A stretch of 64,000 bases of DNA, from assembly GCA_964436545.1 (NCBI GenBank), contig CAYTCJ010000006.1, positions 4,729 to 68,728 of the forward strand, read 5' to 3'. Positions 16,919 to 48,068 of the stretch are shown here, piece by piece. Under the pieces are notes generated by a model. The model searched no databases, was not told the origin of the DNA, and saw only the letters and a list, made by a program, of their open reading frames with translations. This DNA comes from an uncultured Candidatus Saccharibacteria bacterium. GTDB taxonomy: Bacteria; Patescibacteriota; Doudnabacteria; UBA920. Made by a program: the position numbers and the translations under genes. Position 1 is the stretch's first letter. The number at the start of each line of letters is the position of its first letter.

Positions 16919-17075
16919 GGATTAGAGTTAGGAATATAGAATTATGAGTTATGAGTATTTGTTCTACTTTGCCAAGGCTTCGTAGGACATTTCTTCGCTC
17001 TATAAATTTAAGCCTCAAATGTCTGTAAGAATAAGATTTATTTGATGCTTGCACTTCGTAGCTTCCGCGAAGAAG

Positions 17076-17150
17076 TGGTGGGCAGTGAAGGGATTGAACC
17101 TTCGACCCTCTCTACGTCAAAGAGATGCTCTACCACTGAGCTAACTGCCC
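17076..17150 (-). tRNA. tRNA-Val (anticodon GAC)
   Basis: Manual cloverleaf: acceptor GGGCAGT, D arm GCTCAGTGGTAGAGC, anticodon loop TTGACGT, T arm GAAGGTTCAATCCCTTC, encoded CCA. Confidence 0.8.
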
Positions 17151-17279
17151 AATATTGCAATCTTATATTTTATAATCCATTCAACCAATGGTGCGGGCCA
17201 AACTAAGCTACGTTCCCTCTAACTTCGTCAAAACTTCTTAGGATAAGAGGAGACTATAAACATAATAGTTATCTTCTTG

Positions 17280-17316
17280 TCCTCCGTAGCCTTGACGGAG
17301 GAGGAAGCTAACTGCC
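17280..17316. other. hairpin TCCTCCGTAGCCTTGACGGAGGA followed by a 12-nt duplicate (AGCTAACTGCCC) of the tRNA-Val 5' end
   Basis: Exact 12-mer also at 17139-17150 inside tRNA-Val. Confidence 0.4.
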
Positions 17317-17404
17317 CTTAGGTATTTTAAAAAACAAAGAAATTGCCTTCTGATTGTATCAAAAATCGCGATTCTCTTCAAACCGCGATTTTTGCTCCTG
17401 TAAT

Positions 17405-19273
17405 TTATACCCCTTTCGGGTCACCAAACAAAATATGTTGTTGTAATTTTTCTTGGGGAATAATGTCTTTCACGAGCTCATGAAACTCTTCTTGTTCTAT
17501 AGTTTCTTTATCGATTAACTGCTGGGCGATTTTATTTAAATAATCTCGATATTTGGTTAAAATCTCCGTGGCTCGGTTAAAGCCTTCTGTCATAATCCGA
17601 TTAATTTCCGAATCGATCTTTCGGGCGATTTCCTCACTATAGTTTCTTTGTTCGTGCAAATCTTTACCTAAAAATACCATTTCTTGGTTATTACCTAAAG
17701 CCACCGGTCCCAATTCTTCGCTCATGCCATAAGCCATAATTAATTTTCTTGCCATACCGGTAGCCACTTTTAAATCATTACTGGCGCCGGTGGTGAGTTC
17801 GTTAAAAACCAATTTCTCCGCTGCATAACCACCCATTAAAGCTGCGATTTCATCCAAAAAACTGGATCGGGTATGCAAATGTTTATCTTCAAACGGCAAT
17901 TTCATAGTATAGCCCGCAGCTCTCCCTCGGGAAATTATCGACACTTTATGGACCGGATCGGAAAAAGCCAGCGCGCTACCCACTAAAGCATGCCCGCCTT
18001 CATGGAAAGCGGTAACTTCCTTTTCTTTCGGTGATAAAATATGACTCTTTCTTTCCGGTCCCAGCATCACTTTTTCCACGGCTTCCTTTAAATTTAGTTG
18101 GCTAATTTCTTTTTTATCTGCCCGAGCGGCTAAAATGGCCGCCTCATTCAAGATATTGGCTAAATCGGCGCCGGAAAAACCAGGCGTTCGCTCGGCGATT
18201 TTGCGCAAATTGGCATCTGTGGCCAAAGGTTTATTTTTGGCGTGAATTTGTAAAATCGCCTCTCTGTCCTTAATGTCCGGCAAATCCAAAACCACTTGTC
18301 TATCAAACCTACCCGGTCTAAGTAAAGCCGGATCTAACACATCGGGCCGGTTGGTGGCAGCCATCACAATCACATTGGTATCGTTCTCAAATCCATCCAT
18401 CTCCACTAAAATTTGGTTTAAGGTTTGTTCTCTTTCGTCATGCCCACCGCCTAAACCCGCCCCTCTTTGTCTGCCCACAGCGTCAATTTCATCTACAAAT
18501 ACAATGCAAGGCGCATTCTTTTTAGCTTTTTTAAATAAATCTCTCACTCTCGCAGCTCCCACCCCCACAAACATTTCTACAAATTCACTGCCGGAAATAT
18601 GAAAGAAGGGCACATTTGCCTCACCGGCTACGGCTCTCGCCAACAAAGTTTTACCCACGCCCGGACTACCCAACAACAACACGCCTTTGGGAATTTTAGC
18701 TCCCAGAGCTAAAAATTTTTGTGGGAATCTTAAAAAATCCACGACTTCTTTTAATTCTTCCTTAGCTTCCTTTACTCCGGCCACTTCGGAAAATTTTACT
18801 TTTATTTTATTCTCCTCGGTTAACCGAGCGCTAGATTGGCCAAAAGTTAACGCTCGATTATTGGCACCTTGCACGTTGCGCATTAAAAAATAAATAAATA
18901 AAGAAATTAATACAAAGGGCACTAAAAACGGCACAATGGAATCTAAAAATACCGCCCAACCGCTTTTATTAACATACCCGATTTGCAAATTTTTTAACTT
19001 TTCCGGTTCTACTCCGGTATTTTTAAAAAAATCCGTAATTTCCGTATATTTGCCCAAAATACTTACATACTTCACTTCCGTGTCTTTAATTTTTGCAGTG
19101 ACTTGGCTTTCACTTACTTCCACATACTCCACTTTACCTTGGTTAATTAGCTGACTTATTTCCGACATCTTCACATTTTTCACTTCATTTTTAGGCGAAA
19201 AAGCCTCAAACACAAAGGAGAGCAATAAAAATGCCAATAAAATATACAATAAATTTTTTATAATTTTACTCAT
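17405..19273 (-). CDS. ftsH: ATP-dependent zinc metalloprotease FtsH
   Basis: TM-periplasmic-TM N-term, AAA+ Walker A GPPGTGKT, SRH, HEGGHA zinc motif. Confidence 0.95.
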
Positions 19274-19439
19274 ACTTTAAATAAATTATGTGTCTGATGA
19301 TTATATAAAACTTCTTGTTTTTAATCAATAGCAATTAAACTGAGTTGTAAGTAGTAAGTGAGTAAGTTGTAAGTTTAAAAAATACCCTTGTCTGTTCTCC
19401 AACTTCAAGTAAAAAACAATCTTATACTTCAACTCCCAA

Positions 19440-19526
19440 TGGTGCCGGAGAGAGGATTTGAACCTCCAAGGGATTGCTCCCACTAGCTCCTAAGGCTAGC
19501 GCGTATGCCAATTCCGCCACTCCGGC
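19440..19526 (-). tRNA. tRNA-Leu (anticodon TAG), long variable arm
   Basis: Manual cloverleaf: anticodon loop CTTAGGA, variable arm TGGGAGCAATCCCTTG, T arm GAGGTTCAAATCCTC, encoded CCA. Confidence 0.8.
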
Positions 19527-19578
19527 AAGAAGCCTCCCTAATCTTACAGACTTTTAGGAGTTTTATCAATCTGAATAA

Positions 19579-19617
19579 CAAAGATGATCTTCGTAAGAAG
19601 AACGAAGATCATCTTTG
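19579..19617. terminator. perfect 16-bp-stem hairpin (bidirectional terminator) between tRNA-Leu and the pilin array
   Basis: CAAAGATGATCTTCGT-loop-ACGAAGATCATCTTTG with flanking A/T runs. Confidence 0.7.
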
Positions 19618-19640
19618 TTTCAAAAATATATAAGCAATGT

Positions 19641-20243
19641 TTACCCCAAAGGTCCGGTGGAACTTAACGTGTTGGTTACTATAGTTATTATTGTCATGGA
19701 CAGTAAAACAATTACTATGCCAATGACTGCATTAATTAAGGTTTGTTTGCCTTTCTCGCTTTGCTCTTCATTGCCTCCGGCAGTGATGTATTGGTAACCA
19801 CCTAAAATTAGAAATACCGTAGCAATCACCCCGGCTAAAGTTAACAGCCACTTAAGGACAATGGCAATTACTTCAAAAATAGACCCGGCGCCTCTTAAAC
19901 TTCCCTCTTTGGCTTCAGCTTCAGGAGCCGGCACGCACAAACCATTTATGTAGCAAAATTTAGGAGCCGGACAAAATTCATCTCCGGGCTTATCGCATTT
20001 ACTCTGATTACTTCCGGAATTAGAGCTTTCACCTCTACCACTGGCGCTATTAACCGAAGGGGCTGGGGGGTTTGGATCTTTTTTACACAAACTAGTTTCA
20101 GGATCACAAACTAACCCAGTATCACACTGATTAGAGGCATTTGTTATACAAGTACCACCTTCACTTATAGCTAAAACAGTTTTGACAGAAACAGAACAAA
20201 TAATCGTTATGAACAATATAAAAATAATAACTCTTTTGTACAT
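19641..20243 (-). CDS. secreted pilin-like protein 1: signal peptide, Cys-rich (about 10 Cys) ectodomain, conserved C-terminal VirB2/TrbC-like two-helix pilin module
   Basis: C-terminal LILGGYQYITAGGNEEQSEKGKQTLINAVIGIVIVLL shared with the next five genes. Confidence 0.7.
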   Translation of the reverse strand: MYKRVIIFILFITIICSVSVKTVLAISEGGTCITNASNQCDTGLVCDPETSLCKKDPNPPAPSVNSASGRGESSNSGSNQSKCDKPGDEFCPAPKFCYINGLCVPAPEAEAKEGSLRGAGSIFEVIAIVLKWLLTLAGVIATVFLILGGYQYITAGGNEEQSEKGKQTLINAVIGIVIVLLSMTIITIVTNTLSSTGPLG

Positions 20244-20246
20244 AAA

Positions 20247-20654
20247 TTAAAACCCAAAAGTACTTCCACTACCGGAAACGGTGTTTACCACGACATTAAT
20301 AATTACATAAGACATAATAATAACTACCACTCCAATTACCGCGTTAATTAAGGTAGTTTTACCTTTCTCGCTTTGTTCTTCGTTACCCGCCGCGGTGATG
20401 TATTGGTAACCGCCTAAAATTACAAAAAATACTGCCAAAGCTCCGGCAATAAACAAGAGTAAACTAATTACCCTGTAAATTAAACCGCTGGGGCCGGTTA
20501 AAGTTTGGGCTCCGCTTAAACCTCCCACCGGAAATAACAACCTAATGCTATTTAACCCTCGGTTAACATCCCCTTGTGCTAAAGCCAAAAAAGGAAAGCC
20601 GGTTAATAACCCCAGTATGGATAACTTAAGGAAAAAAAATATTTTTTTTAGCAT
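20247..20654 (-). CDS. secreted pilin-like protein 2 (short ectodomain)
   Basis: Signal peptide plus VILGGYQYITAAGNEEQSEKGKTTLINAVIGVVVIIMS module, near-identical to gene 1 module. Confidence 0.7.
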   Translation of the reverse strand: MLKKIFFFLKLSILGLLTGFPFLALAQGDVNRGLNSIRLLFPVGGLSGAQTLTGPSGLIYRVISLLLFIAGALAVFFVILGGYQYITAAGNEEQSEKGKTTLINAVIGVVVIIMSYVIINVVVNTVSGSGSTFGF

Positions 20655-20741
20655 TGTTTTATTTTAAATAAAATATTCAAACCTCAATAGAAAATTTTGA
20701 CTTCAAAAAATTAAAAATTATATAATTTTAAATTTTCTATT

Positions 20742-20770
20742 AAGGTTTGACCCCCAAAAAATAGTGGGGG
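20742..20770. repeat. GC hairpin TGACCCCC-aaaaaatagt-GGGGGTCA immediately downstream of pilin gene 3
   Basis: 8-bp perfect stem; same C-run/G-run class as family B. Confidence 0.55.
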
Positions 20771-20779
20771 TCAAAAATA

Positions 20780-21193
20780 TTACGGACCGGCACCAGTACC
20801 GGCGCTAGAAACGAAATTGGAAACCACATTGACAATTACGTAAGATAAAATAATTATCACAATACCAATTAACGCGTTGACGGCTGTGCCTTTGCCTTTT
20901 TCCGCTGCTTCTTCGTTACCGGCAGAAGTAATGTATTGGAACCCGCCAATAATTAAGAACAAAACCGCTACGGCAAAAGCTATGCCCAATAGCCAATTAA
21001 TTACTGTTCTAATTAAAGAATTCACATTAGTTCCGGCGTTACAGTTAAGACCACTGGAAGGATCGCATTGTAGTCCTCGGTTTAACTGAGCGTCAGCCAC
21101 TAACAACGGAGCAAATAGTAGCAAACTTACCAAAGCGATTTGCGCTACGGATAACCAATTAATCTTTTTTAATGTTTGTATCACTTGTGTCAC
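20780..21193 (-). CDS. secreted pilin-like protein 3
   Basis: Signal peptide, CDPSSGLNCNAG, then LIIGGFQYITSAGNEEAAEKGKGTAVNALIGIVIIILSY module. Confidence 0.7.
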   Translation of the reverse strand: MTQVIQTLKKINWLSVAQIALVSLLLFAPLLVADAQLNRGLQCDPSSGLNCNAGTNVNSLIRTVINWLLGIAFAVAVLFLIIGGFQYITSAGNEEAAEKGKGTAVNALIGIVIIILSYVIVNVVSNFVSSAGTGAGP

Positions 21194-21267
21194 CCCCTCT
21201 CTTATGCCCTCTTATGTCCTTCTCTTCCCTTTCTCTTCCATTAAGAGTTAGGAAAGAGGGGGTAAGA
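21192..21267. repeat. inverted repeat ACCCCCTCTCTT...AAGAGGGGGT flanking a CT-rich spacer between pilin genes 3 and 4
   Basis: Read directly; family-B-like. Confidence 0.5.
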
Positions 21268-21439
21268 AGACCAAAGAGTTTAATTTTAACTATTATACTA
21301 TATTTTTACTTTTTATGGAAATTAACTATGTTATACCATTCTCGCCTGCCTACGGTAGACAGGCGGAAGCGGAAATCCAGAACTAATCAGACATTCTTTC
21401 TTAAGAAACAGATGTTAATAGTGTATTTATTCTTTCTGT

Positions 21440-21988
21440 TTATCTCGGTGTTGACCTATTTTCCAAAGGAGGATTATTTACTGGTTCTGATTCTCCACCC
21501 TCACTCGGATTACTAGGGGCCTGCTTTGGAGTAGCCTGACCTTGATTAGGTTTACTCTTCCCAATACTCAAGGTATTGGCCACAATCCTTACCATTGCTC
21601 CGGCCAAAATAATTACTGCCAAACCTAACACCGCATTAACTAAAATCTTTTTGGCTTGTTCACTGGCCTCTTCTTGCCCGGCGGAAGTGACATATTTAAA
21701 TCCACCATAAGTAATGGTAATTAATGCCACGCTACCGGCCAAAGCCAAAAGTGCATTAATAATCCACAGTCCAATTTGTTGAACACTGCAAAACCTAGGC
21801 AAATCTTCCACAGCATTAATGGTGCCTTTTTCAGTTTTAATAGTAAACCATTTATAAAACTTATCGCACCGGCTTTCTTGTATGGTGGTTAAGCCTTCTT
21901 TTGGCTGAGCCAAAACCGGTTTAACCAAAAAGCCAAAAATTATAACTAAACTAAATAATCCAATCTTTAAAAAAAACTGTTTAGACAT
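21440..21988 (-). CDS. secreted pilin-like protein 4 with Pro-rich disordered C-terminal tail
   Basis: Signal peptide; TYGGFKYVTSAGQEEASEQAKKILVNAVLGLAVIILAG module; tail ...TPKQAPSNPSEGGESEPVNNPP. Confidence 0.65.
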   Translation of the reverse strand: MSKQFFLKIGLFSLVIIFGFLVKPVLAQPKEGLTTIQESRCDKFYKWFTIKTEKGTINAVEDLPRFCSVQQIGLWIINALLALAGSVALITITYGGFKYVTSAGQEEASEQAKKILVNAVLGLAVIILAGAMVRIVANTLSIGKSKPNQGQATPKQAPSNPSEGGESEPVNNPPLENRSTPR

Positions 21989-23357
21989 GTTTATTGGGTT
22001 TAATAATATTTATTGCTTCAGGCTCAGGGATATTTGCCCCTAACAAATTTTGCACAATCGCAATTATACTAAAAGATAGCAAAGCCACCACCACACCCAA
22101 AACTGCCCAAGTAATGGTTTTTTTGGCTGCGGTAATGGCTTCCTCGTTTCCATTGGCAATGACCATTTTAAATCCGCCAATCATGACAAACACCACACCC
22201 CATAGCCCTACTACAGCCAAAAACCCCTTCGCAATACCTAAAAGCGTACCGGTTAAACTATCTGAAGGCAAAGGGTTAAATAAAGTTTCTTTTAAACTGG
22301 TATCTACTGTGCCAGCTCCCGCACCGGAATTACCCGCCCCTGTATTTGCACCCACATTACCCCCAGCCCCTGCACCGGTTCCTGTGCTACCCCCACCGCC
22401 TGACTTCAACCCCTCTATATTTACTTTAGCATTTCCTTCCGCATATTTAACGGTTATATTATTTTTATTTAAGACCACAACTTTTACATCATTGAGCCCA
22501 TTTTTAAAATAACCATTTTCTTCCACATTAATTTTTTGAATTTGTCTGTAAGCTAATTCAGCTTTTGTTTTTTCCATCGAACCAACTTCTCTGCTACCCA
22601 CATAAGTCTTAACTAATAAATTTGGGGATAAATTATTCGTATTTTCTAATTTTATACCAACTTCTACAATACTCAAATTTATATTTGAAGCTGTTTCAGC
22701 AGATACATCACCACGAGATCCAGTTGGATTTAAATTATTTAAATAGGCTGGCGGATAATAAGTAGAAGCATTGAAATCAATTTTTACATTCGTTACTCCT
22801 GATAAAATAGTGGGCCCTGATGTACCTGAAATATTAATATTTTCTGTTGCTGAAACTGTTAAAATATTACTTGAAACAATCCGCCCAGCCAAGGCATTGG
22901 TTCCCACAACCTTCACAAATACTGGAAATTGGTTTGAGTTCTCCAAATCACCAAAAATAAAATTACTTAAATTAAACTGAAAATTATCACTCGCCAATTC
23001 TTCACTGCGTGCTCCAGAAGAAGTAAATCTTGCAAAATTGTTAAATTCTCCATTTAGTCTTTTTTCTCCAGTCCCTGGGGTATTTACCATCCCGTATTGG
23101 CTTGGGGTGGCAACATTTTTTACTTTTACAAAATATTGTAAATAAACACCTTCTTTACATTCTGTTCCACTTCTACTAACTTGTGTAAATAATGAAATTG
23201 AGTCTGTGCTTGTAATATTTTTAGGTTGTGCTTGAAATCTTACTATATAATTACAAGACGCCTGTGCCACATTCAAAAACCCAAGTCCCACATACGAACT
23301 GAGTATAAACACCAAACAAACTATGGAAAAATATTTTTTCATAAACTTATAAGTCAC
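21981..23357 (-). CDS. secreted pilin-like protein 5 (458 aa): large beta-rich N-terminal domain, Gly-rich linker, C-terminal pilin module
   Basis: Signal peptide; GGGGSTGTGAGAGGNVGANTGAGNSGAGAG linker; MIGGFKMVIANGNEEAITAAKKTITWAVLGVVVALLSF module; overlaps neighbours by 8 and 11 bp. Confidence 0.65.
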   Translation of the reverse strand: MTYKFMKKYFSIVCLVFILSSYVGLGFLNVAQASCNYIVRFQAQPKNITSTDSISLFTQVSRSGTECKEGVYLQYFVKVKNVATPSQYGMVNTPGTGEKRLNGEFNNFARFTSSGARSEELASDNFQFNLSNFIFGDLENSNQFPVFVKVVGTNALAGRIVSSNILTVSATENINISGTSGPTILSGVTNVKIDFNASTYYPPAYLNNLNPTGSRGDVSAETASNINLSIVEVGIKLENTNNLSPNLLVKTYVGSREVGSMEKTKAELAYRQIQKINVEENGYFKNGLNDVKVVVLNKNNITVKYAEGNAKVNIEGLKSGGGGSTGTGAGAGGNVGANTGAGNSGAGAGTVDTSLKETLFNPLPSDSLTGTLLGIAKGFLAVVGLWGVVFVMIGGFKMVIANGNEEAITAAKKTITWAVLGVVVALLSFSIIAIVQNLLGANIPEPEAINIIKPNKHV

Positions 23358-23832
23358 ACTTAGCGTGGTCTTTCGGATTGGAATGAATAATTAAATAATT
23401 TAACGGGTCGGTTAAATCTAACTTGCACTCTACTTCTTTACCATTTTCCAATTTTATTTTCTTGCCGGCTCCCCCGAGTAAAATATAATTGACTGCGGTA
23501 TTTACAAACATATAAGCAAATAAGACCATTACAAACCCCACGACTGCCTGACTAATTTGCTTTTTGTAATTAGTAATTTTTTCTTCATTTCCCATAGTTA
23601 CCACTAACCAAAAGCCAGCTCCAATAATTACGTATACCGCATAAATCCCTGCTAGTCCTATAAGTGTATTGGTAACTCTGGCCACCATCACAAAAATATC
23701 TTTTAACGTGCAGGCACTTTGCCCACTACCCCCGCAAGGCACCAACCCGCCTTTGGCTTGAGCCAAAACCAAATCCGGAAAAACCAAAAAGATTCCTATC
23801 ACCAAACTGAAAATTAAAATTTTTTGTTTCAT
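23347..23832 (-). CDS. secreted pilin-like protein 6 with Cys-containing C-terminal extension
   Basis: Signal peptide; IIGAGFWLVVTMGNEEKITNYKKQISQAVVGFVMVLFAY module. Confidence 0.65.
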   Translation of the reverse strand: MKQKILIFSLVIGIFLVFPDLVLAQAKGGLVPCGGSGQSACTLKDIFVMVARVTNTLIGLAGIYAVYVIIGAGFWLVVTMGNEEKITNYKKQISQAVVGFVMVLFAYMFVNTAVNYILLGGAGKKIKLENGKEVECKLDLTDPLNYLIIHSNPKDHAKCDL

Positions 23833-23922
23833 CTATATATTATTGCTAAATAATTATAGCATTTTTTCCCAACTTTAACACCTACTCCGCAATTTACCTG
23901 CCTTTTTAAAAAAATTACCGCC

Positions 23923-25221
23923 CTACTCTCTTACTAAAGTATTAATTTGCGCCTCAGCTTCATAAACCGCTTCGGTAAAATCTTTGCCTTTCAAATTTAC
24001 ATTGTCCAGCATATTCCCTACGATATTGTCATACTTAGCTTGCTCGGGGCGTTTAAAACTTCTGGCGGTTAAATTGGCTGTGGCAAAAACTCCCAAATCC
24101 ACATCTTGGGCTTGCAGTTCCACCAAATCTTTACGAGCAGATGGCACTTTATGGTTAGCGTAATATTTTTCCAAAGCATCTTTACTGGAAATAAACTTTA
24201 AAAAATCCCAAGCCGCCACTTTATTTTTACTCTGAATAGACACACCCTCTGCCCAATAATTGGCAAAATTGACGCTCGGCTCGTTTAAGTTAAATTGCGG
24301 GACAAAAGTCACATCAAATCTTAAATTGGGTGCTTTTTGCCTAAGGGTATCGGCTAAATAACTATATCCAAACACATACGCACTGCGACCATTTACAAAC
24401 GCATCTATGGAATAATCACTCCTGGCATTCCAAGTATAATTCTGACTTTTAGGATCGGCAAAAGAGCTGTAAAAATCCAAAGCCTCCACAGCCGGTTCTA
24501 AATTTTTATTATCTTTTTGAATATTTTGACCTAATTGCGCAAACCCCTCCTCATTACTCCCAATATTTTTAAAGCCTAATTGGAGCATAAATAAATAGTA
24601 AATATCCACGGCACGGTTAACATTCTTGGCTAACCCCAAAGCCACACCGCTATTCTGAAAATAACCTCGGCTATCTTGCTTGGTTAAAATTCTGGTGTGC
24701 TCAGCCAATTCCTGCCAACTTCTCGCCGGTACGGCAATCCCCGCACTGCCCAATAAATCTTTATTATAATAGAGAGCCAAAGAATCTACAGACAAGGGCA
24801 CGGCATACAGTTTATTTTTATTTACTAAATCTTCTTTGACTACCTCTACAAAATTATCATTAATATATTTCAGATTAATAACTTTTTCCGAAGCCGGTTC
24901 TAATTTGTCTATATACTTAGGCAACCACGTATTGTGAATGGAAAAAATATCCGGCCCCTTCCCCGAAGCTAAAGCGTTTAACAAATCGGTTTCGTAATTT
25001 TCTATATTCTTTTTTACGTAATTAATTTGCGCTCCGGGATGTTTGGCTATATACGCATCAATTAACGGCCTTATATTTTCGCTGTCTTCAAAAGTTTTCC
25101 AAATGGTTAAAGTCACCGGACCGGTGGGTCCGGCCGGATTACCATTCCCCCCACAACCCGCGGACACCAATACCAAGAGCCCGACTACCAACCATGTTTT
25201 GATTTTGCTTTTTATTTTCAT
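23923..25221 (-). CDS. extracellular solute-binding lipoprotein (ABC transporter family-1 SBP, sugar-type), orphan (no permease nearby)
   Basis: Lipobox LVSAGC; SBP_bac_1-like fold motifs. Confidence 0.75.
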   Translation of the reverse strand: MKIKSKIKTWLVVGLLVLVSAGCGGNGNPAGPTGPVTLTIWKTFEDSENIRPLIDAYIAKHPGAQINYVKKNIENYETDLLNALASGKGPDIFSIHNTWLPKYIDKLEPASEKVINLKYINDNFVEVVKEDLVNKNKLYAVPLSVDSLALYYNKDLLGSAGIAVPARSWQELAEHTRILTKQDSRGYFQNSGVALGLAKNVNRAVDIYYLFMLQLGFKNIGSNEEGFAQLGQNIQKDNKNLEPAVEALDFYSSFADPKSQNYTWNARSDYSIDAFVNGRSAYVFGYSYLADTLRQKAPNLRFDVTFVPQFNLNEPSVNFANYWAEGVSIQSKNKVAAWDFLKFISSKDALEKYYANHKVPSARKDLVELQAQDVDLGVFATANLTARSFKRPEQAKYDNIVGNMLDNVNLKGKDFTEAVYEAEAQINTLVRE

Positions 25222-25326
25222 AAGTTTAAACTTAGTTTAAACACGGCTATTTTTTTCTTGCTAAAAATTGATTGTAAAAAAATTTGTTTAAATTATTTGG
25301 AAATTTAAGTTCGGTTTACCCCTTTA

Positions 25327-26199
25327 CTATAACTGGATATTTTTTAAATATTCCCCAAAGTCCTTTTTGAGCTCCTCGTGCATTAAGCCAAACTCCACAA
25401 CTGCTTTTAAATATTCCAGTTTATTGCCGGTATCGTAATATTTTCCTTTTTGAATTTCCACGGCATAGACATCTTGCTCTTTGGCTAATTGAGAAATTGC
25501 CTCCGGAAGCCAAATTTCCCCGCCTTTGCCCGGCTTAGCCTCGGCTAAAATGTCAAAAATTCGGGGGGTTAATATATATGCTCCATGGGTGGCTAAATCC
25601 GAGGGCGCCTCGTTTAACTGGGGTTTTTCTACAATCTGGTTAATTTTATAAATGCCCGTTTCCACATTTGTCACTTCCGCAATGCCGTATTTAGACACCT
25701 CGGTTTTGGGCACTCTTACAGCCGAAACATTTGGCACGCCATACTTTTCCCATACCTGAATCATTTGTTTTAATCTGGGCGGGTTAGAATAAATAAATTC
25801 ATCTCCCCACAAAACCGCAAACGGTTCATCGCCAATTACTCGCCGGGCATTTAATACCGGCGTACCGTTGCCATAAGTACCTTTTTGACGAACGTAAATA
25901 AAATTGGCCATATCTGCAATCTTCCTTACTGCTTCGGCCTGTTCTTCTTTCCCGGCTTCCAAGAGTCGCTTTTCCAATTCAAACGGATAATCAAAATGGT
26001 CTTCAATCGTGCGTTTATGCCAACCGGTCACAATAATAATATCTTCAATCCCCGAAGCCACTGCTTCTTCCACCACATACTGAATAATGGGTTTATCCAC
26101 TATGGGGAGCATTTCTTTGGGCATGGCTTTGGTCGCAGGTAAAAACCTGGTTCCAAACCCGGCTGCGGGAATAATGGCTTTTCTAATTTTTTGGCTCAT
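25327..26199 (-). CDS. galU: UTP--glucose-1-phosphate uridylyltransferase
   Basis: KAIIPAAGFGTRFLPATKAMPKEMLPIVDKP N-terminus. Confidence 0.9.
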   Translation of the reverse strand: MSQKIRKAIIPAAGFGTRFLPATKAMPKEMLPIVDKPIIQYVVEEAVASGIEDIIIVTGWHKRTIEDHFDYPFELEKRLLEAGKEEQAEAVRKIADMANFIYVRQKGTYGNGTPVLNARRVIGDEPFAVLWGDEFIYSNPPRLKQMIQVWEKYGVPNVSAVRVPKTEVSKYGIAEVTNVETGIYKINQIVEKPQLNEAPSDLATHGAYILTPRIFDILAEAKPGKGGEIWLPEAISQLAKEQDVYAVEIQKGKYYDTGNKLEYLKAVVEFGLMHEELKKDFGEYLKNIQL

Positions 26200-26326
26200 A
26201 AAAATATTATAACAGAATTTTAAACTTTCTTAAATTGGTTAACTGTGATTTGGATATAGCTTATTTTCTCTTTCCCTGTTCTCTTAATCTCTATTGCACT
26301 AATTCTCTATTTCCCCGACTCTCTAT

Positions 26327-27832
26327 TTATTCTGCCTTAGGCCTATACTGAATGGCTTCGCTTAAATGCCTGGCGGTAATTTGCTCTACCCCGGCTAAAT
26401 CGGCAATGGTTTTCGCCACTTTTAAAATACGGTGCAAAGACCGTCCGGAAAAATTATAAATTTTAGAAGCTTGCTTAAGCATAGCCTCGCCTTCCGCATC
26501 TAATTTGCAAAAGACTTTTAATTCCAATAAATTCATTTCGCTGTTGGTTTTTGGGTTCCCAAATCTGACTTGTTGAATTTGTCTGGCGGTTTCCACTCGG
26601 TGCTTAATGTCCGCGGAAGTCTCCGCTCCGGTTTCGGAGGCGATTTTTTCATAAGGGAGCCGGGGCACTTCCACGTGTAAATCAATTCTATCCAACAAAG
26701 GTCCGGAAATTTTCTTTTGATATTTAAAAATTTGTCCGGGTAAGCATTGGCACTTCTTGCTCGCATCGCCATAATACCCACACGGACAAGGATTTTGAGC
26801 GGCCACTAAAGTAAATTTGGCGGGGAACGTCCAGCTACCACTGGCCCGCGCCACCGTGACTATGCCATCTTCCAAGGGTTGCCTTAAGGCTTCCAGCACA
26901 TTTCTGGGGAACTCGGGAAACTCATCTAAAAATAAAATCCCTCTGTGCGATAAAGTAATTTCTCCGGGTCTGGGGTTTGCACCCCCACCTACCAAAGCCA
27001 CATTGGAAGTCGTATGATGTGGACTTCTTACCGGCCGACTGGAAATAAAACTTTCTTTTAATTTTCCCGCAATGCTATAAATTTTGGTTAATTCTAAAAC
27101 TTCTTCCAGTTTTAAATCGGGCAGAATGCCGGCCATTGCTCTGGCTAATAAAGTTTTCCCGCTTCCCGGCGGACCGGATAATAACACATTGTGGCCACCG
27201 GCTGCTGCAATTTCCAAAGCCCGTTTCGCCAATTCTTGCCCGGCCACATCTTTCATGTCCAATATGCTCTGCGGATTTTTAAATAACTGGTCTTGGGACT
27301 GGGGCTTAAGCGGGGAAATCGGGTTTAGCATTAACAAATGCTCGACTAACTGTTTTAAATTTTTTACCGGAAAAATTTTTACTCCGGCCACCAACCCCGC
27401 TTCTTGCGCATTAGCTTCGGGAATGAATAATTCTGCAATCCCTTGCTTTTGGGCTTTAATTGCTACCGCCAAGACCCCCGGCACAGCTCTTAGTTGACCA
27501 TCTAAAGACAACTCCCCCAAAAATAATTTAGCTTGAGTGTCAAAACTTACTTGCTCATAAGCCAAGAGAATTGCCAAGGCAATAGGCAAATCAAAATGCG
27601 TGCCCAATTTAGGCAAATCTGCCGGTGCCAAATTTACCGAGACCCGAGTTACCGGATATTCAGCCCCGGAATTTTTTATGGCATTTTTCACTCTCTCCTT
27701 ACTTTCCTGAACTGCGGTGTCGGGCAAGCCGACAATAATCGTATTGGTTAAACCATTACTCACCCCGGCTTCCACTTCTATTATTTCCGCATCCAAACCC
27801 ACAATTGTCGCAGAGAAAATTTTTGCAATCAC
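26327..27832 (-). CDS. YifB/ComM family Mg-chelatase-like AAA+ ATPase
   Basis: Lon-protease-like N domain, Walker A GPPGSGKT, C-terminal Mg-chelatase domain. Confidence 0.9.
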   Translation of the reverse strand: MIAKIFSATIVGLDAEIIEVEAGVSNGLTNTIIVGLPDTAVQESKERVKNAIKNSGAEYPVTRVSVNLAPADLPKLGTHFDLPIALAILLAYEQVSFDTQAKLFLGELSLDGQLRAVPGVLAVAIKAQKQGIAELFIPEANAQEAGLVAGVKIFPVKNLKQLVEHLLMLNPISPLKPQSQDQLFKNPQSILDMKDVAGQELAKRALEIAAAGGHNVLLSGPPGSGKTLLARAMAGILPDLKLEEVLELTKIYSIAGKLKESFISSRPVRSPHHTTSNVALVGGGANPRPGEITLSHRGILFLDEFPEFPRNVLEALRQPLEDGIVTVARASGSWTFPAKFTLVAAQNPCPCGYYGDASKKCQCLPGQIFKYQKKISGPLLDRIDLHVEVPRLPYEKIASETGAETSADIKHRVETARQIQQVRFGNPKTNSEMNLLELKVFCKLDAEGEAMLKQASKIYNFSGRSLHRILKVAKTIADLAGVEQITARHLSEAIQYRPKAE

Positions 27833-27884
27833 AAAATTAATTTACAAAAATGACAGAATTTAATAAATAACAAAAATAAAATAT

Positions 27885-28319
27885 TTATGTCGATTTTGTC
27901 ATTTCCGTCGTTTTTGTCATTAATGAATAAACTAACAAAATTAAAATTCCTAAAATAATGTATCCATCGGCTAAATTAAAAACCCCATTAAAAAGATAAA
28001 TCCAATCTCTAACATAACCCAAAAATAATCTTTCCCCTACGTTAGACAGTCCGCCGGCCAAAATCAAACCCCATGCAATTGTTTCGCCAATGCGAAACTT
28101 AAAATAATTTTGCAAGATATAAACCGTCATAACACTCATTACCAAAAAATAAATTACATACATTAAACTTGTCGGCACCGGCAAACTAAAAGCAAACTGA
28201 TAATTTTTAAACTGATCGGGTGTCCAATGTTTGGTAATTTGATCCAATAAAATTAAACTAAAAAAAACACCCAACCCAGTTAAAAAAACTTTGGGTTTAG
28301 GTATTTGATTATTTCTCAT
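27885..28319 (-). CDS. lspA: lipoprotein signal peptidase II
   Basis: 4 TM helices; VRDWIYLFNG..FNLAD signature. Confidence 0.8.
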   Translation of the reverse strand: MRNNQIPKPKVFLTGLGVFFSLILLDQITKHWTPDQFKNYQFAFSLPVPTSLMYVIYFLVMSVMTVYILQNYFKFRIGETIAWGLILAGGLSNVGERLFLGYVRDWIYLFNGVFNLADGYIILGILILLVYSLMTKTTEMTKST

Positions 28320-28320
28320 T

Positions 28321-28378
28321 AGAAATTAGAAATTACTTGTCCCCCAAAGCCTTGGCGAAGGGGGAGAAATTAGAAATT
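28321..28378. repeat. GC hairpin TCCCCC-aaagccttggcgaa-GGGGGA (28340-28366) flanked by 14-bp direct repeats AGAAATTAGAAATT
   Basis: Direct repeats at 28321-28334 and 28365-28378 read directly; looks like a target-site duplication around a small inserted hairpin. Confidence 0.55.
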
Positions 28379-28391
28379 CATTTAGCCTTGG

Positions 28392-28709
28392 CTAAATGCT
28401 CCTATCTGCCCAAGGTAAAACTTCCAGTCTCTCTTTGGCAATTGGCTGTCCATCATCATCTGTGCCATAAGTTCCTTGCTCCATCTTTCGCAGTGCTTTA
28501 GCGATTTTTTCCAAATCTTGAGACACTTTGCTTTTTATGCTCAAATGTAATTCATCTTCTTCGGCTTCTTTGGCATTGTCATCATCCCGACTCCCCAGTT
28601 CGGTGTGTTCCGGTAACAACTCCAATTCCTGCGTTAATCGAGCTTGTTCACTTAACAAGTGAACTTTCATTTTTTCTAAAAATGTTTTGTCTAAATGTGT
28701 ATTTGTCAT
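28392..28709 (-). CDS. DksA/TraR-family protein lacking the C4 zinc-finger cysteines
   Basis: C-terminal region matches the DksA family pattern but has Asp in place of the zinc-finger Cys (GTYGTDDDGQPIAKERLEVLPWADRS). Confidence 0.5.
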   Translation of the reverse strand: MTNTHLDKTFLEKMKVHLLSEQARLTQELELLPEHTELGSRDDDNAKEAEEDELHLSIKSKVSQDLEKIAKALRKMEQGTYGTDDDGQPIAKERLEVLPWADRSI

Positions 28710-37833: not shown

Positions 37834-38447
37834 AAAATTTTAGCCACCACTCGGCACAGACCGGCCTCTGCTTCCAGCTTAGCGGGTAAGGCAACAATTT
37901 CCCAATTTGGATAGGCGAATAGTGTTTCTAAATTGGTTAAATTTTCAATAATTAAAATATCTTGTTTCAATAAAATTTTATGCACGCCATAAGGTGCTTT
38001 GTCCGGACTGGGAGTATCCATACCCACCATAGCAACACCCAATTCCACTAACTTTTTGGCAAACCCTTCACTGATTACCGGATAATTTAAATAATACTCA
38101 TCGTTATGAAATACCTCAGACCAGCCAAAACAAATTAGCACAACATCTCCCGACTTAATATCCATACCGGATAATAATTCTGCCCCCACCGATGTTTTGC
38201 CCCGCGCGTCTATAACCACCCCTCGTCCAAAAAATTTTTCTACCGGATATTCGTTTAATAACTTGCCACCCATAAGCATATGACTGGGCGCGTCCATATG
38301 CGTGCCCACATGCAAACTGGTGTTTAAATGAAAATGACTAAAACCGTCTTTTTCTACAAAAGTCGTTTGTTTAAGCTCAGAGGCCGGATCCCCGGGGAAC
38401 ACCGGCATTTGTCCATTAAAAGTGTGAGTTAAATCTATATATCTCAT
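37830..38447 (-). CDS. cyclase-family protein (kynurenine formamidase-like)
   Basis: HVGTHMDAPSH metal-binding motif. Confidence 0.75.
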   Translation of the reverse strand: MRYIDLTHTFNGQMPVFPGDPASELKQTTFVEKDGFSHFHLNTSLHVGTHMDAPSHMLMGGKLLNEYPVEKFFGRGVVIDARGKTSVGAELLSGMDIKSGDVVLICFGWSEVFHNDEYYLNYPVISEGFAKKLVELGVAMVGMDTPSPDKAPYGVHKILLKQDILIIENLTNLETLFAYPNWEIVALPAKLEAEAGLCRVVAKIL

Positions 38448-39526
38448 TTGATTGCGATCCCAACTGCTTCCTTAATATTTTTAAACCCATCACGCGCTAA
38501 AAGCTTTACCAAACCCTGATTAATTTTTTTTACCACAGAGGGTCCTTCGTAAACCAGCCCGGTATAAATTTGCACTAAACTGGCTCCGGCCTGAATTTTT
38601 TCATAAGCACTTTCCGCGCTATCTACTCCACCCAGTCCAATTAGGCAAGGTCGCTTGAGTAATTTATAGGCATGACTAATCAGATCATTTGATTGGCTAT
38701 AAATTGGCTTACCCGAGAGCCCCCCTTTGCCAATCCGGTCTAATTCCTCTTGAGGAGTTTTAAGTCCTGCTCGATGTTTAGAGGTATTGGTTAACACATA
38801 CCCATTAACTTTATGAGCTTCGCATACTTCTAAAATTTTTTCCAGTTCCGCGAAACTTACATCGGGTGAAATTTTTACCAAAATGGGTTTATGTTCATGA
38901 AACTGAGCTTGCACTTTATTTATTTCTCCCAATAGCGTATTTAAGGCTACCGGATCTTCAAAAGTTTTACCTTCTAGGGTATTGGGACAACTGACATTTA
39001 TGGTAATGTATTGTCCAAACGGATACATTTTTTTAAAAGTATATAAAAAATCAGCTACTGCCTTGTCGCCTAAAATCTGCGGATCGTGGGTTTTGGCAAT
39101 ATTTATACCAAACGGCAAAGACGAAATAAAGTTTTGGAGTTTTTTTTCCATTGCATCGGCGCCAATATTTGCTAACCCCACTCGATTGATTACAGCTCTG
39201 TCTTTAGGCAGTCTAAAAATTCTCGGCTTAGGGTTGCCTGTGCTAAATTTGGCGGTAATGTTTCCACATTCCATAAAGCCAAACCCTAAAGCCTGCCAAA
39301 AACTTAATGCCTGAGCGCTTTTATCAAACCCGGCAGCCAGACCAATGGGGTTTAATAAATCCATACCTAAAAAGTTGGTGCGCAGAGCCTGGTGTTCAAA
39401 ATGAAAAAAAGTTTTAACTAAAAAAGACAGCCGGGCTTGGCTTAACCCAGTGGCCAACTGGAGGGTGGTCTCATGAACTTTTTCCGAATCAAATTGAAAT
39501 AAAACTGGCCGAATTAATTTATACAT
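38444..39526 (-). CDS. pyrD: dihydroorotate dehydrogenase (class 2-like)
   Basis: GLAAGFDK, GF.EVGT-like and FMN-binding motifs. Confidence 0.85.
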   Translation of the reverse strand: MYKLIRPVLFQFDSEKVHETTLQLATGLSQARLSFLVKTFFHFEHQALRTNFLGMDLLNPIGLAAGFDKSAQALSFWQALGFGFMECGNITAKFSTGNPKPRIFRLPKDRAVINRVGLANIGADAMEKKLQNFISSLPFGINIAKTHDPQILGDKAVADFLYTFKKMYPFGQYITINVSCPNTLEGKTFEDPVALNTLLGEINKVQAQFHEHKPILVKISPDVSFAELEKILEVCEAHKVNGYVLTNTSKHRAGLKTPQEELDRIGKGGLSGKPIYSQSNDLISHAYKLLKRPCLIGLGGVDSAESAYEKIQAGASLVQIYTGLVYEGPSVVKKINQGLVKLLARDGFKNIKEAVGIAIK

Positions 39527-40360
39527 TTATCGATATTGATTAATTTCATCTCGGAGTTTTTTTGCTTCTTCTTGAGGGTTATTTGCAAAAATTATCCCGC
39601 GGGAGGAGTTAATAATCATGCCTAATTTTTGTGAATTGATGCCCGCTTTAACCACCGCTTCTACATCTCCACCTTGGGCGCCCACTCCCGGCACTAACAA
39701 AGTCATATCACCCACTATTGCCCGAACCACCTTCATTTCCTCAGGGTAAGTGGCGCCCACCACCAGCATACAATTGTGGTTATAATTCCAGTCTTGGGAT
39801 ACTTTTTCTGCCACCATTTGCCAAATGGATTTCACCCCTCCCTTACCCTCCCCATCTAGGGGAGGGAACGGCACACAAAGATCTTGCAATTCTCCGGCTC
39901 CGGGATTAGAAGTCCGACAGAGAATAATCGATGCTTTATCTGCCCTGTCTAAAAATGGTTTTAAGGCTTCTTTGCCTAAGTACGGATGTAAAGTAATCGC
40001 ATCAAAACCCATTTCATCAAATACCGCTTTCACATAACCTAAATTAGTATTGCCAATATCCGCCCGTTTGGCATCACATATGGTTAAAACATCCGGATAT
40101 TTATTCTGCAAATAATTTATGGTCATTTTTAACTCTTTTAAACCCTGTTCACCTCTGGCTTCATAAAATGCCATGTTGGGCTTAAAGGCAGAAACAAATT
40201 CTACAGTCTCATCTATTATCCATTTATTAAACTCAAACTGAGGAAACTCTTTGGCTTTAAAATCGGCAGGAATTTTTTCAAACTCACTATCTAAACCCAC
40301 ACACACTAAAGAATTAACTTTTTTGGCTCTTAAATTATATTTTTCAATATTTTGATGCAT
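39527..40360 (-). CDS. pyrF: orotidine 5'-phosphate decarboxylase (long type) with in-frame GC-hairpin insertion
   Basis: LVCVGLDSE, MAFYEA motifs; inserted PFPPLDGEGKGG encoded by 39834-39866. Confidence 0.85.
   Translation of the reverse strand: MHQNIEKYNLRAKKVNSLVCVGLDSEFEKIPADFKAKEFPQFEFNKWIIDETVEFVSAFKPNMAFYEARGEQGLKELKMTINYLQNKYPDVLTICDAKRADIGNTNLGYVKAVFDEMGFDAITLHPYLGKEALKPFLDRADKASIILCRTSNPGAGELQDLCVPFPPLDGEGKGGVKSIWQMVAEKVSQDWNYNHNCMLVVGATYPEEMKVVRAIVGDMTLLVPGVGAQGGDVEAVVKAGINSQKLGMIINSSRGIIFANNPQEEAKKLRDEINQYR
39834..39866. repeat. family-B element CCCCTCCCTTACCCTCCCC-atcta-GGGGAGGG, 33 bp, in-frame in pyrF
   Basis: Near-identical to 587-618; length divisible by 3. Confidence 0.8.
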
Positions 40361-40365
40361 AAAAA

Positions 40366-40995
40366 TTATTTTAATCCTTTTGCTTCCAAATATTTTTTCC
40401 CATGGCCGACTTGAGTGTTAATGGGCACCCCGGCCTCACACAAGGGGCATTCGCCATCTTTAAAAGTGGGTACCTCAAACTCATCTAAAGGTAAAAATTT
40501 TGTCCCGAAGAATTCCGCATTCACAATTTTCGGACTGCGGTTAACCATCACCGACACCGCCACCACTTCCCCGCCGACTACCTTAACCGCTTCCACCACT
40601 TTTTTGGCTGACTCGCCGGTAGTAGTTAAATCTTCTACCACATAAACTTTCTTACCGGTGATGAATTTATCGTACCCTCTGGTAAAAGCCATACCCCCTT
40701 CTGCGGTTTTTTCCGTATACACTCCGAAAACTTCTCGATTGGTTAAAAGAGTTAAGTGATGCGCGGTCCAAGTAGAAAGAATAATTCCTCCCAAAGCTGG
40801 ACCCACAACAACTTCCACCCCTAAATCCTTGACCTTTTCTGCAAATAATTTACACACTTCTGAGGTGTCCTCAGTATGCGGGTAAAGCGCATCTTTATTT
40901 ATGTAAGTGGCAAAATGCGCGCCACTGGTGCCCACAAAATGACTGTCCGTTATCACTGCCCCACTTTTTTTTAACAAATCTAAGACTTTACTCAT
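40366..40995 (-). CDS. pyrE: orotate phosphoribosyltransferase-like PRTase
   Basis: PRPP-binding motif KVYVVEDLTTTGES; operon context pyrD-pyrF-pyrE. Confidence 0.75.
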   Translation of the reverse strand: MSKVLDLLKKSGAVITDSHFVGTSGAHFATYINKDALYPHTEDTSEVCKLFAEKVKDLGVEVVVGPALGGIILSTWTAHHLTLLTNREVFGVYTEKTAEGGMAFTRGYDKFITGKKVYVVEDLTTTGESAKKVVEAVKVVGGEVVAVSVMVNRSPKIVNAEFFGTKFLPLDEFEVPTFKDGECPLCEAGVPINTQVGHGKKYLEAKGLK

Positions 40996-41467: not shown

Positions 41468-42418
41468 TTATTTTAATTTCCAACTGTGCGATTTATAAAA
41501 AATAAAAATAATGGCGACCGCATAAATTAACAAATCTTCCACTTCCCACACTCCCGATTGAATCGCCATAGTGGTAACTGAGGTGGCAAAGAAACCGGCC
41601 ATCACCACTGTGTTAATTCTAATTATAAAACCCAAAACATACAACAGACCAAATATGGTTTCCATAAAACCGGCACTCAGCACAAAAAGCTGATTAGAAA
41701 AATTAAACCCCAACATTTTTACAAAATTCCAATTATGTTCGTTTAAAAACTGCAAAGCCAATTCCGGGTGTAACAATTTTTCGGTAAAGGCTAAAACCAC
41801 TAAAGACACCCCGGCGCCCGTGCGTAATATGGGCACTGCCCAAGCTTGGTAAACGAATAATTTATGAGTTTCGGACAACTCACTTAAATATATAAACAGG
41901 GCAATGGCTAAAAGCAATAAATTTTCCAAATAAAATTCTATACCTCCCAACCCACCGGCCACTAAATACAAACCACCTAGAGCCAGACCTGCCCATTTTG
42001 GGTAAACATTAACAATTAACATTACCCCAATTATGCCTTGTGCAACTTGCAAAACTTGTTGCCATAAACCACTCACGGGAATTTGTGGCACTAAAATAAT
42101 TTGCCAAAACCCACTGATTACCACTAAAAATATTCCCACTAAAATTTTAAAAATTCTATAAATGGCCTTTTGGTTTTTCTCCCCAAACTCTAAAATTTTT
42201 TTCGGTTCCTTTAACTTATGGTTCAAAACTTTCGCTAAGCCAATCAGCAATAACGTTACCACCACCCAAACTCCCACGGGCTTAGACCACCAACTAAAAA
42301 ACTCTATGGTCTGATTGGAGGCTTTGACTGCCTCTACATCCACAAACCATTTAATGTGTGCCAAAGCCACTTGCGGTAAACTGAAGGCGAGAACTAAACC
42401 TAAAAAAAACTTTTTCAT
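41468..42418 (-). CDS. hypothetical integral membrane protein (signal peptide plus about 7 TM)
   Basis: Hydrophobicity pattern only. Confidence 0.45.
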   Translation of the reverse strand: MKKFFLGLVLAFSLPQVALAHIKWFVDVEAVKASNQTIEFFSWWSKPVGVWVVVTLLLIGLAKVLNHKLKEPKKILEFGEKNQKAIYRIFKILVGIFLVVISGFWQIILVPQIPVSGLWQQVLQVAQGIIGVMLIVNVYPKWAGLALGGLYLVAGGLGGIEFYLENLLLLAIALFIYLSELSETHKLFVYQAWAVPILRTGAGVSLVVLAFTEKLLHPELALQFLNEHNWNFVKMLGFNFSNQLFVLSAGFMETIFGLLYVLGFIIRINTVVMAGFFATSVTTMAIQSGVWEVEDLLIYAVAIIFIFYKSHSWKLK

Positions 42419-47993: not shown

Positions 47994-48068
47994 TGGTATC
48001 CTCACCAGGAGTCGAACCTGGATCTAAACGTTAGGAGTGTTTTGTTCTATCCGTTGAACTATGAGGAC
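47994..48068 (-). tRNA. tRNA-Arg (anticodon CCT)
   Basis: D arm GTTCAACGGATAGAAC, anticodon loop CTCCTAA, T arm CAGGTTCGACTCCTG, encoded CCA. Confidence 0.8.

Follow-up and report, generated by a model that had tools for sequence, protein, structure and literature searches.

The 64 kb stretch of DNA analyzed here (the window, to which all coordinates refer) carries at 19641-23832 an array of six minus-strand open reading frames (ORFs) in a row, whose products all belong to the VirB2-like PF18895 "T4SS pilin" (type IV secretion system pilin) family. The genes are numbered g1-g6 against transcription, the transcription order thus being g6, g5, g4, g3, g2, g1, with array positions counted from position 1 (g6) to position 6 (g1); gene limits, domain make-up and flanking features are collected in Table 1. 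All six proteins begin with K/R residues and a hydrophobic signal-like segment closing with an (L/V)xAQ-type motif, and each has two hydrophobic helices further on, as revealed by a Kyte-Doolittle scan which, together with direct reading of the sequences, also served to infer the signal-peptide cleavage sites. A two-helix module of about 75 residues can be aligned across all six proteins, with G31, G39, E41, E42, K48, A54, G57 and N73 invariant, and a hidden Markov model (HMM) built from the six modules found no seventh copy in the window. The core of the preliminary description of this DNA, that is, six consecutive minus-strand genes each encoding a signal peptide and a shared two-helix module, is thus borne out by the ORFs, the Kyte-Doolittle scan, the module alignment and the PF18895 matches.

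The VirB2/TrbC-like pilin identity, put forward in that description as a guess, held when the Pfam search was run. All six proteins pass the PF18895 (T4SS_pilin) gathering score of 26.6 bits, with scores of 32.6-51.5 bits, and g3 passes PF04956 (TrbC/VirB2, threshold 27.9 bits) as well, with g1 remaining below that threshold at 21.3 bits and g2, g4, g5 and g6 giving no match to it. Six independent PF18895 matches above threshold rule out chance or a gene-calling artefact as the source of the array. In NCBIfam every match to the array proteins lies below its cut-off, including those to NF045849 (Mbov_0395 pilin-like conjugal transfer protein), for which all six score 19.7-34.7 bits at a cut-off of 40 bits. 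Searched with the module profile, the family proves to be very large: it comprises 72,799 cluster representatives at E <= 0.001, of which 12,411 remain at E <= 1e-10. The AlphaFold2 model of g3 is a hairpin of helices 57-89 and 94-133. Cysteine counts in the predicted extracellular parts are even in every case, the C-terminal tail of g6 with its two cysteines included, and a topology with N- and C-termini both outside fits these even counts. A type IV pilus (T4P) pilin identity was considered and ruled out by the ordinary Sec signal peptides, the lack of a prepilin-peptidase site (G|F/M-T-L-x-E) and the C-terminal hydrophobic hairpin; the array proteins gave no match to T4P Pfam families.

The spacing of the genes differs from the 8-11 bp overlaps and single operon described initially. 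The sole firm overlap is that of g5 and g4 (8 bp). An 11-bp overlap of g6 and g5 arises only with the alternative GTG start of g5, and with the ATG start at 23342, which is the public gene call (identical protein P0001), the two genes are separated by a 4-nt spacer. Gaps of 3 nt (g2/g1), 125 nt (g3/g2) and 246 nt (g4/g3) separate the others. The g4/g3 gap contains a putative promoter-like site, followed downstream by a purine-rich AGAGGGGGTGA motif 6 nt ahead of the g3 start codon, and the g3/g2 gap contains a GC-rich hairpin. Since the two long gaps hold these elements, the view of one operon is doubtful, and up to three transcription units (g6-g5-g4, g3 and g2-g1) are probably the better description. 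The supposed strong bidirectional terminator between g1 and tRNA-Leu does comprise a highly stable 17-bp hairpin, which carries a U-tract on neither strand. The consensus terminator scan did not report it, and in general missed the hairpins that folding later revealed.

Table 1. Features of the pilin array and its immediate flanks (window coordinates; aa, amino acids)
Feature	Array position	Coordinates	Strand	Description
tRNA-Leu(tag)		19440-19526	-	ARAGORN; downstream boundary of the array; same position in 14/14 relatives
17-bp perfect inverted repeat		19578-19618	.	between g1 stop codon and tRNA-Leu; -28.8 kcal/mol, z = -7.8, 0/200 shuffles as stable
g1	6	19641-20243	-	200 aa; PF18895 47.3 bits; signal peptide, two 4-Cys units with Pro/Ser/Gly-rich spacer between, pilin module
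g2	5	20247-20654	-	135 aa; PF18895 45.7 bits; signal peptide, ~30-aa N-terminal piece without Cys, pilin module
11-bp GC-rich hairpin		20746-20775	-	g3/g2 gap, immediately 3' of g3 stop codon; -18.7 kcal/mol, z = -3.7
g3	4	20780-21193	-	137 aa, GTG start; PF18895 51.5 bits, PF04956 28.8 bits; signal peptide, ~20-aa N-terminal piece with 2 Cys, pilin module
Promoter-like site TTTCCA-18-TATAAT		21292-21321	-	g4/g3 gap; putative, consensus match only (consensus scan, 10/12 positions)
g4	3	21440-21988	-	182 aa; PF18895 32.6 bits; signal peptide, ~40-aa N-terminal piece with 2 Cys, pilin module, 33-aa Pro/Ser/Glu-rich C-terminal tail
g5	2	21981-23342 (ATG); alternative GTG 23357	-	453 aa (ATG) or 458 aa (GTG); PF18895 36.8 bits; signal peptide, two predicted beta-sandwich domains (aa 31-172, 184-309), Gly-rich linker, pilin hairpin
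g5 hypervariable segment (ectodomain)		22430-23270	-	3' limit ~22570 vs L083, ~22430 vs L084
g6	1	23347-23832	-	161 aa; PF18895 34.2 bits; signal peptide, short N-terminal piece with 2 Cys, pilin module aa ~45-124, 35-aa C-terminal tail with 2 Cys
Lipoprotein SBP (solute-binding protein)		23923-25221	-	SBP_bac_8 98 bits, SBP_bac_1 89 bits; directly upstream of the array

Relationships of the six paralogues across related genomes

Related loci were gathered by a scan with the adjacent FtsH, one genome being taken per species. The nearest named relatives are Candidatus (Ca.) Doudnabacteria metagenome-assembled genomes with FtsH 70-73% identical, closer relatives by FtsH (96% and 79%) being labelled "uncultured Ca. 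Saccharibacteria"; the named homologues of g3 and g5 are also from Ca. Doudnabacteria. By these affinities the source is a Doudnabacteria-like member of the Patescibacteria. In each of the 14 relatives whose sequence reaches far enough upstream, 4-6 pilin genes are detected with the module HMM directly upstream of FtsH, in the conserved order ComM-GalU-SBP-[array]-tRNA-Leu(tag)-FtsH-tRNA-Val-RNase III, with the relatives 64-79% identical in FtsH. SBP, array, tRNA-Leu and FtsH occur together in 13 of the 14, and in the remaining one (L019) the sequence is cut upstream of its array. On the grounds of this synteny, and of a GC content equal to that of the surroundings, the array is a stable chromosomal feature of the lineage and not the variable island beside tRNA-Leu for which it had been taken.

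Among the six copies the modules are 43-64% identical in nucleotides and 27-62% in amino acids, and beyond the module the proteins have no alignable sequence in common. The modules of g1 and g2, initially held to be nearly identical in DNA, share 62.6% of nucleotides over 222 nt (59.5% in amino acids), or 70% over 172 nt when taken as a direct repeat, the longest identical run being 17 nt. In a bootstrapped neighbour-joining tree of 81 modules, sequences cluster by array position and not by genome, with bootstrap values of 90%, 69% and 47% for the clades of positions 1, 4 and 2. The window copies at positions 1, 2, 5 and 6 are each sister to their counterpart in one relative (L003) in 80-87% of replicates, the value for position 5 (g2) being 87%. 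No pair of window paralogues groups together, and each is closest to its positional counterparts in other genomes. Nearest-identity assignment of the paralogues is noisy for positions 3, 5 and 6, and firm claims are limited to positions 1, 2 and 4 and to the window/L003 pairs. Because the modules group by position and no two window paralogues come together, recent duplication and concerted evolution are excluded as far as module phylogeny can tell, and conserved order and synteny mark the six as old paralogues of fixed order and identity. Recombination between copies within the array, as proposed in the preliminary description, does not agree with paralogues of such low identity, each closest to its positional counterpart elsewhere; that description had itself named related genomes without evidence of recombination as the observation that would speak against it, and this is what was found.

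The most conserved paralogue is g3. Its modules are 66-87% identical among positional orthologues, and in a database search the best 120 of 711 clusters (E <= 0.001) are 61-100% identical to it. Being short and highly conserved and having a promoter-like site of its own, g3 is likely the core (major) subunit, or at least the best candidate for it. Some of its close homologues in JGI records (P0088, P0097, P0143) bear the name "amino acid transporter", which is probably an annotation error due to the hydrophobic hairpin; one is correctly named "Type IV secretion system pilin".

Extracellular domains at positions 2 and 6

The AlphaFold2 model of g5 (25-sequence alignment, mean pLDDT 75) has five parts, comprising a signal helix, two successive beta-sandwich domains with pLDDT mostly 85-94, a disordered Gly-rich linker (residues 316-359) and a helical hairpin (362-395 and 400-433). 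When the model was searched against the PDB with Foldseek, all matches were generic, tandem Ig/FnIII-like and low in TM-score, examples being PECAM-1 IgL1-2, RbmA of Vibrio, the barrels of factor XIII and the repeats of Cpe0147. The predicted fold class of the ectodomain is clear, namely two Ig-like beta-sandwich domains, with none of the matches being specific to one adhesin family. Two cysteines, C30 and C62, occur without exception in the g5 homologues.

Comparison of g5 with two close homologues, P0002 and P0004, reveals a strain-level mosaic. At the protein level the module is 97.6% and 98.8% identical to P0002 and P0004, respectively, the corresponding values being 36% and 26% for domain 1 and 65% and 34% for domain 2. 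We aligned the two short contigs that encode these homologues (L083 for P0002 and L084 for P0004) to the window. DNA identity is 83-98% in g6, in the signal-peptide region, linker and module of g5, and in g4. Taken per 100 nt, it drops from 88-96% to 40-62%, with insertions and deletions, inside a hypervariable segment of 700-840 bp and is back at 82-98% past it; blastn finds no match to either contig within this segment. The 5' breakpoint coincides with the boundary between the signal peptide and the mature protein of g5, and the 3' breakpoints differ between the two contigs.

Because the 3' breakpoints differ between two relatives, recombinational replacement of the ectodomain segment is favoured over uniformly fast evolution. 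The differences may also stem from diversifying selection on old alleles or, with a small probability, from assembly chimeras, both contigs being short (2.0 and 2.2 kb). A diversity-generating retroelement (DGR) would be a further source of localized hypervariability in a secreted surface protein such as g5, and such elements have been reported in Patescibacteria. We consider this explanation extremely improbable: no template-repeat/variable-repeat pair is present in 17000-28500, no reverse transcriptase is encoded among the scanned window ORFs, the predicted fold is Ig-like and not that of a C-type lectin, and a variable segment of 700-840 bp with insertions and deletions is far above the typical DGR variable repeat of about 100-150 bp.

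The mature part of g1 contains 8 cysteines arranged in two 4-Cys units; the ectodomain is thus Cys-rich as first described, with fewer cysteines than the ~10 stated there and in a two-unit layout. In a relative 87% identical at the nucleotide level (L002) the C-terminal 121 residues of g1 are 98% identical. All position-6 orthologues are Cys-rich, with a varying number of 4-Cys units, and share the motif CP..NG(L/I)C(V/L)P, which is conserved right ahead of the module. Four of them (L004:7775-8731, L005:8289-9083, L009:8308-9210 and L010:8124-9413) contain, N-terminal to the module, a peptidoglycan-binding domain, PG_binding_1 (PF01471), above threshold. The window g1 is without PG_binding_1, and either lost this domain or never had one.

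Genomic surroundings and other genes of the window

The lipoprotein SBP gene was said to follow the array, and in the direction of transcription it precedes it. A Pfam scan of 37 window ORFs, which include all non-nested ORFs of about 200 residues or more, found no ABC permease or ATPase partner for this SBP in the 64 kb. We do not adopt a functional link between SBP and array: synteny extends over all of the housekeeping genes around them, so that the adjacency of the two in 13 relatives has no extra weight. The gene for the signal peptidase II LspA (Peptidase_A8) lies at 27885-28319 (minus strand), three genes upstream of SBP, the window order being LspA, ComM, GalU, SBP, array; an LspA-like ORF is found at that spot in only five relatives.

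At the other flank, three relatives carry 2-7 kb of higher-GC DNA (0.51-0.58 versus 0.42-0.46) between array and tRNA-Leu (L003:7600-9600, L014:4760-8380 and L018:2900-9850), and similar higher-GC DNA lies upstream of FtsH in a fourth (L006:1-3300). The ORFs in these inserts are Ala/Pro/Arg-rich and on the opposite strand, and the window is without such an insert. Integration of an element at the tRNA could account for these stretches, as could chimeric assembly. An Andersenbacteria-labelled relative carries near FtsH, on the opposite strand, a 519-residue ORF with two pilin modules (L020:3097-4653, minus strand), and a Gracilibacteria locus gave a single weak module match (L070:6950-7342).

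Apart from the six pilins and SBP, the scanned ORFs encode housekeeping proteins (SMC, a DnaQ-like exonuclease, FtsK, IF-2, Mur ligase, RNase Y, MurA, Ddl, RecA, NusA, LspA and others) or give no match in Pfam. The latter include ORFs of 414, 316 and 219 residues at 54069-55313 (plus strand), 41468-42418 (minus) and 48031-48690 (minus), which gave no match at the thresholds applied. At 57442-58965 (minus) a MurA-like protein (EPSP_synthase, residues 77-491) carries an N-terminal XRE-type HTH_3 domain (16-65), an unusual fusion. Genes for dihydroorotate dehydrogenase, OMP decarboxylase and a phosphoribosyltransferase are adjacent at 38444-40995 (minus) and suggest late steps of pyrimidine synthesis, which draws attention because Patescibacteria are generally described as being without de novo nucleotide synthesis (PMC10633639).

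A proposed surface structure and its relation to known systems

We favour, with moderate confidence, the reading that the six anciently diverged VirB2-like genes encode six different building blocks of a surface structure that depends on a T4SS, g3 forming the core and g5 and g1 providing contact domains. Each product would be exported by Sec, lose its signal peptide and sit in the membrane as a helical hairpin with both termini facing outward and the conserved G-N-E-E...K loop facing the cytoplasm. The six would act as subunits of fixed order and identity, not as interchangeable cassettes, and would most likely be assembled into a pilus-like or stalk-like surface structure by a type IV secretion machine whose genes lie in another part of the genome; we infer this T4SS dependence and the formation of a filament from family membership and the literature. 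At position 4, g3 would be the likely core subunit. At position 2, g5 would display its two Ig-like domains by way of the flexible Gly-rich linker, and at position 6, g1 would display its Cys-rich units, joined in some relatives by the peptidoglycan-binding domain, both being likely contact subunits for a host cell or a cell wall. The g5 ectodomain appears to be exchanged or rapidly diversified between strains, as expected of a host-recognition determinant. That the paralogues are old and keep their positions argues for different parts of one structure and not for spare copies, and two of these positions carry real extracellular domains: those of g5 are predicted to be Ig-like, and those of g1 and its orthologues are Cys-rich or peptidoglycan-binding.

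Several observations weigh against this reading. As the preliminary description had it, none of the 37 ORFs scanned against Pfam encodes VirB4, VirB6, VirD4 or another T4SS protein. The hairpin has no significant counterpart among solved VirB2 or TraA pilins: a profile search with the module gave no match among PDB sequences, and Foldseek returned no match for the g3 model at E < 0.9, the best pilin, the Aeropyrum pernix conjugation pilus (8dfu), appearing at rank 5 with E = 2 and a target-normalised TM-score of 0.59. Bootstrap values for the exact clades of positions 3, 5 and 6 are low, and the core and contact roles derive from conservation patterns only. A pilus of this family has so far been observed in no member of the Patescibacteria, and a 2025 review treats it as a possibility (PMC12857230). 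An ectodomain of ~280 residues (g5 ~31-309) on every subunit would be hard to pack in a canonical VirB2 helical filament. In the top-scoring members of the family, moreover, one signal peptide is followed by 2-17 modules in a single chain, as in P0174 with 6 modules, P0173 with 8 and P0186 with 17 modules in 1,775 residues; P0174 (L082:1777-3435) is a verified ORF inside an array of four single-module pilin genes. These poly-pilins argue for modules lying side by side in one membrane, and are a better fit to a membrane-embedded hetero-oligomer than to a filament of free subunits.

Such a hetero-oligomer forms the basis of the main rival explanation, in which the VirB2-like hairpin is a mere membrane anchor or oligomerisation unit and a fixed complex, for instance a ring or pore, presents the Ig-like, Cys-rich and peptidoglycan-binding domains on the cell surface with neither a T4SS nor a filament involved. 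Besides the poly-pilins, the lack of T4SS genes in the 64 kb, the packing problem posed by g5 and the lack of a significant structural match to solved pilins, it draws on the fixed copy number and order, which suggest a fixed stoichiometry, and on PG_binding_1 in position-6 orthologues, which suggests anchoring to the cell's own wall. We nevertheless regard it as unlikely, though worth serious attention. Pfam membership ties the module to VirB2/TrbC, a conserved interaction, either at the cytoplasmic face or within a pilus lumen, is suggested by the invariant GNEE...K loop, and pilin genes lie near virB4 in 1,135 of 1,948 Patescibacteria assemblies (PMC12102498), with the pilin array of Ca. 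Southlakia epibionticum placed inside an essential T4SS cluster (PMC10633639, PMC12857230). Far less credible, and in our judgement very improbable, is a cassette system in which recombination between neighbouring modules shuffles the ectodomains for antigenic or phase variation within a variable island by the tRNA. The module common to all six copies, the direct repeat joining g1 and g2, the higher-GC insertions taken up at the tRNA-Leu flank in four relatives (L003, L014, L018 and L006) and the variation of the g5 ectodomain between strains could all be read in its favour. Yet the module DNA of the copies is 43-64% identical with no identical run beyond 17 nt, there are no silent or partial copies, each copy having its own start codon and signal peptide, and the paralogues are closest to their positional counterparts elsewhere with no concerted evolution seen. 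Order and position are kept in 14 relatives, array GC equals that of the surroundings, and the g5 breakpoints lie in its own signal-peptide and domain-2/linker sequence, not in sequence common to the other paralogues. Of the radically different ectodomains of a diversified adhesin that the preliminary description envisaged, the strong differences among the six stand and the idea of a contact function gains from the replacement seen in g5; shuffling between copies does not stand.

A more far-reaching reading, which we offer tentatively and hold to be doubtful as a whole, is that the six paralogues build one heteromeric surface organelle of fixed stoichiometry in an epibiotic ultrasmall bacterium, with g3 as a VirB2-like core to which subunits with specificity-setting N-terminal domains are added, g5 as strain-exchanged Ig-like host-recognition module and g1 supplying Cys-rich and peptidoglycan-binding units that engage a cell wall, the array being a modular determinant of host range. 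If so, strains would exchange the g5 module through recombination in the conserved sequence on either side of it, namely signal peptide and linker, and the poly-pilin fusions of up to 17 modules would show the hairpins to be side-by-side protomers and not a homopolymer. Few gene sets have been found essential for the way of life in which Patescibacteria recognize and attach to host cells, and the VirB2-like pilin arrays, in one cultivated species, belong to these. The ectodomain swap between close strains marks g5 as a candidate host-specificity determinant, a role that, like core and contact functions, we infer.

The novelty implied in the preliminary description is overstated, this kind of system having been published already. 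With PF04956 and PF18895 as profiles for a search of 3,035 Patescibacteria genomes, Quinonero-Coronel et al. (2025, Microb Genom) describe a VirB2-like pilin together with VirB4 in 1,948 assemblies, and 441 VirB2 arrays of 2-11 divergent genes in 383 assemblies, with a mean identity of 25% and a maximum of 54% over whole proteins; the variety of pilins is proposed to aid adaptation to different hosts, and Table S1 contains one GTDB-class Doudnabacteria genome with VirB4 (PMC12102498). Wang et al. (2023, Cell) found the pilin genes in the T4SS cluster of Ca. Southlakia epibionticum ML1 to be essential (PMC10633639), and the 2025 review describes six structurally conserved, sequence-divergent VirB2-like pilins, an array which may form a pilus in a monoderm (PMC12857230). 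What is new here is the old, fixed-order architecture of six positions, the domain content of two of these positions and the swapped Ig-like ectodomain of g5. In the parts of PMC12102498 consulted we found no mention of large ectodomains, of positional orthology across a class or of strain-level ectodomain replacement, and Doudnabacteria are absent from its main text.

Compared to the VirB2/TrbC/TraA conjugative pilins of diderms (PF04956), the array proteins share the signal peptide, the two hydrophobic helices and the short charged loop, with g3 passing the family threshold, and differ in that five of six fail it, in the acidic character of the loop (GNEE), in the ~90- and ~280-residue ectodomains of two members and in the monoderm host. 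Weak profile similarity over the whole module connects them to the pilin-like family NF045849 of Mycoplasma integrative and conjugative elements (Mbov_0395 / MMCAP2_0565), likewise monoderm and of conjugation type, of which they are, with all six scores below 40 bits, non-members. The tandem VirB2 paralogues of Bartonella and Anaplasma T4SS loci, cited in PMC12102498, are also divergent pilins, proposed to vary surface properties or host interaction; they are regarded as recent amplifications for antigenic variation, whereas the present paralogues are old by module phylogeny and conserved in order. The closest parallels lie in the same phylum. With the patescibacterial VirB2 arrays described in PMC12102498, the present array shares the Pfam families, the tandem layout, a copy number within the published range and a low identity between copies (our 27-62% applies to the module only and the published values to whole proteins). 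Six consecutive genes also agree with the array definition given there, of at least two pilin genes in tandem or one non-pilin gene apart; unlike those arrays, it is surrounded by housekeeping genes, and virB4 is absent from the scanned ORFs of the 64 kb. The pilins of Ca. Southlakia epibionticum ML1 (PMC10633639, PMC12857230) lie inside a T4SS cluster and are essential, whereas the array described here stands apart from T4SS genes and is known from sequence alone. In both cases, six sequence-divergent VirB2-like pilins are encoded side by side in a presumed monoderm epibiont of the same phylum, and a pilus-like structure has been proposed.

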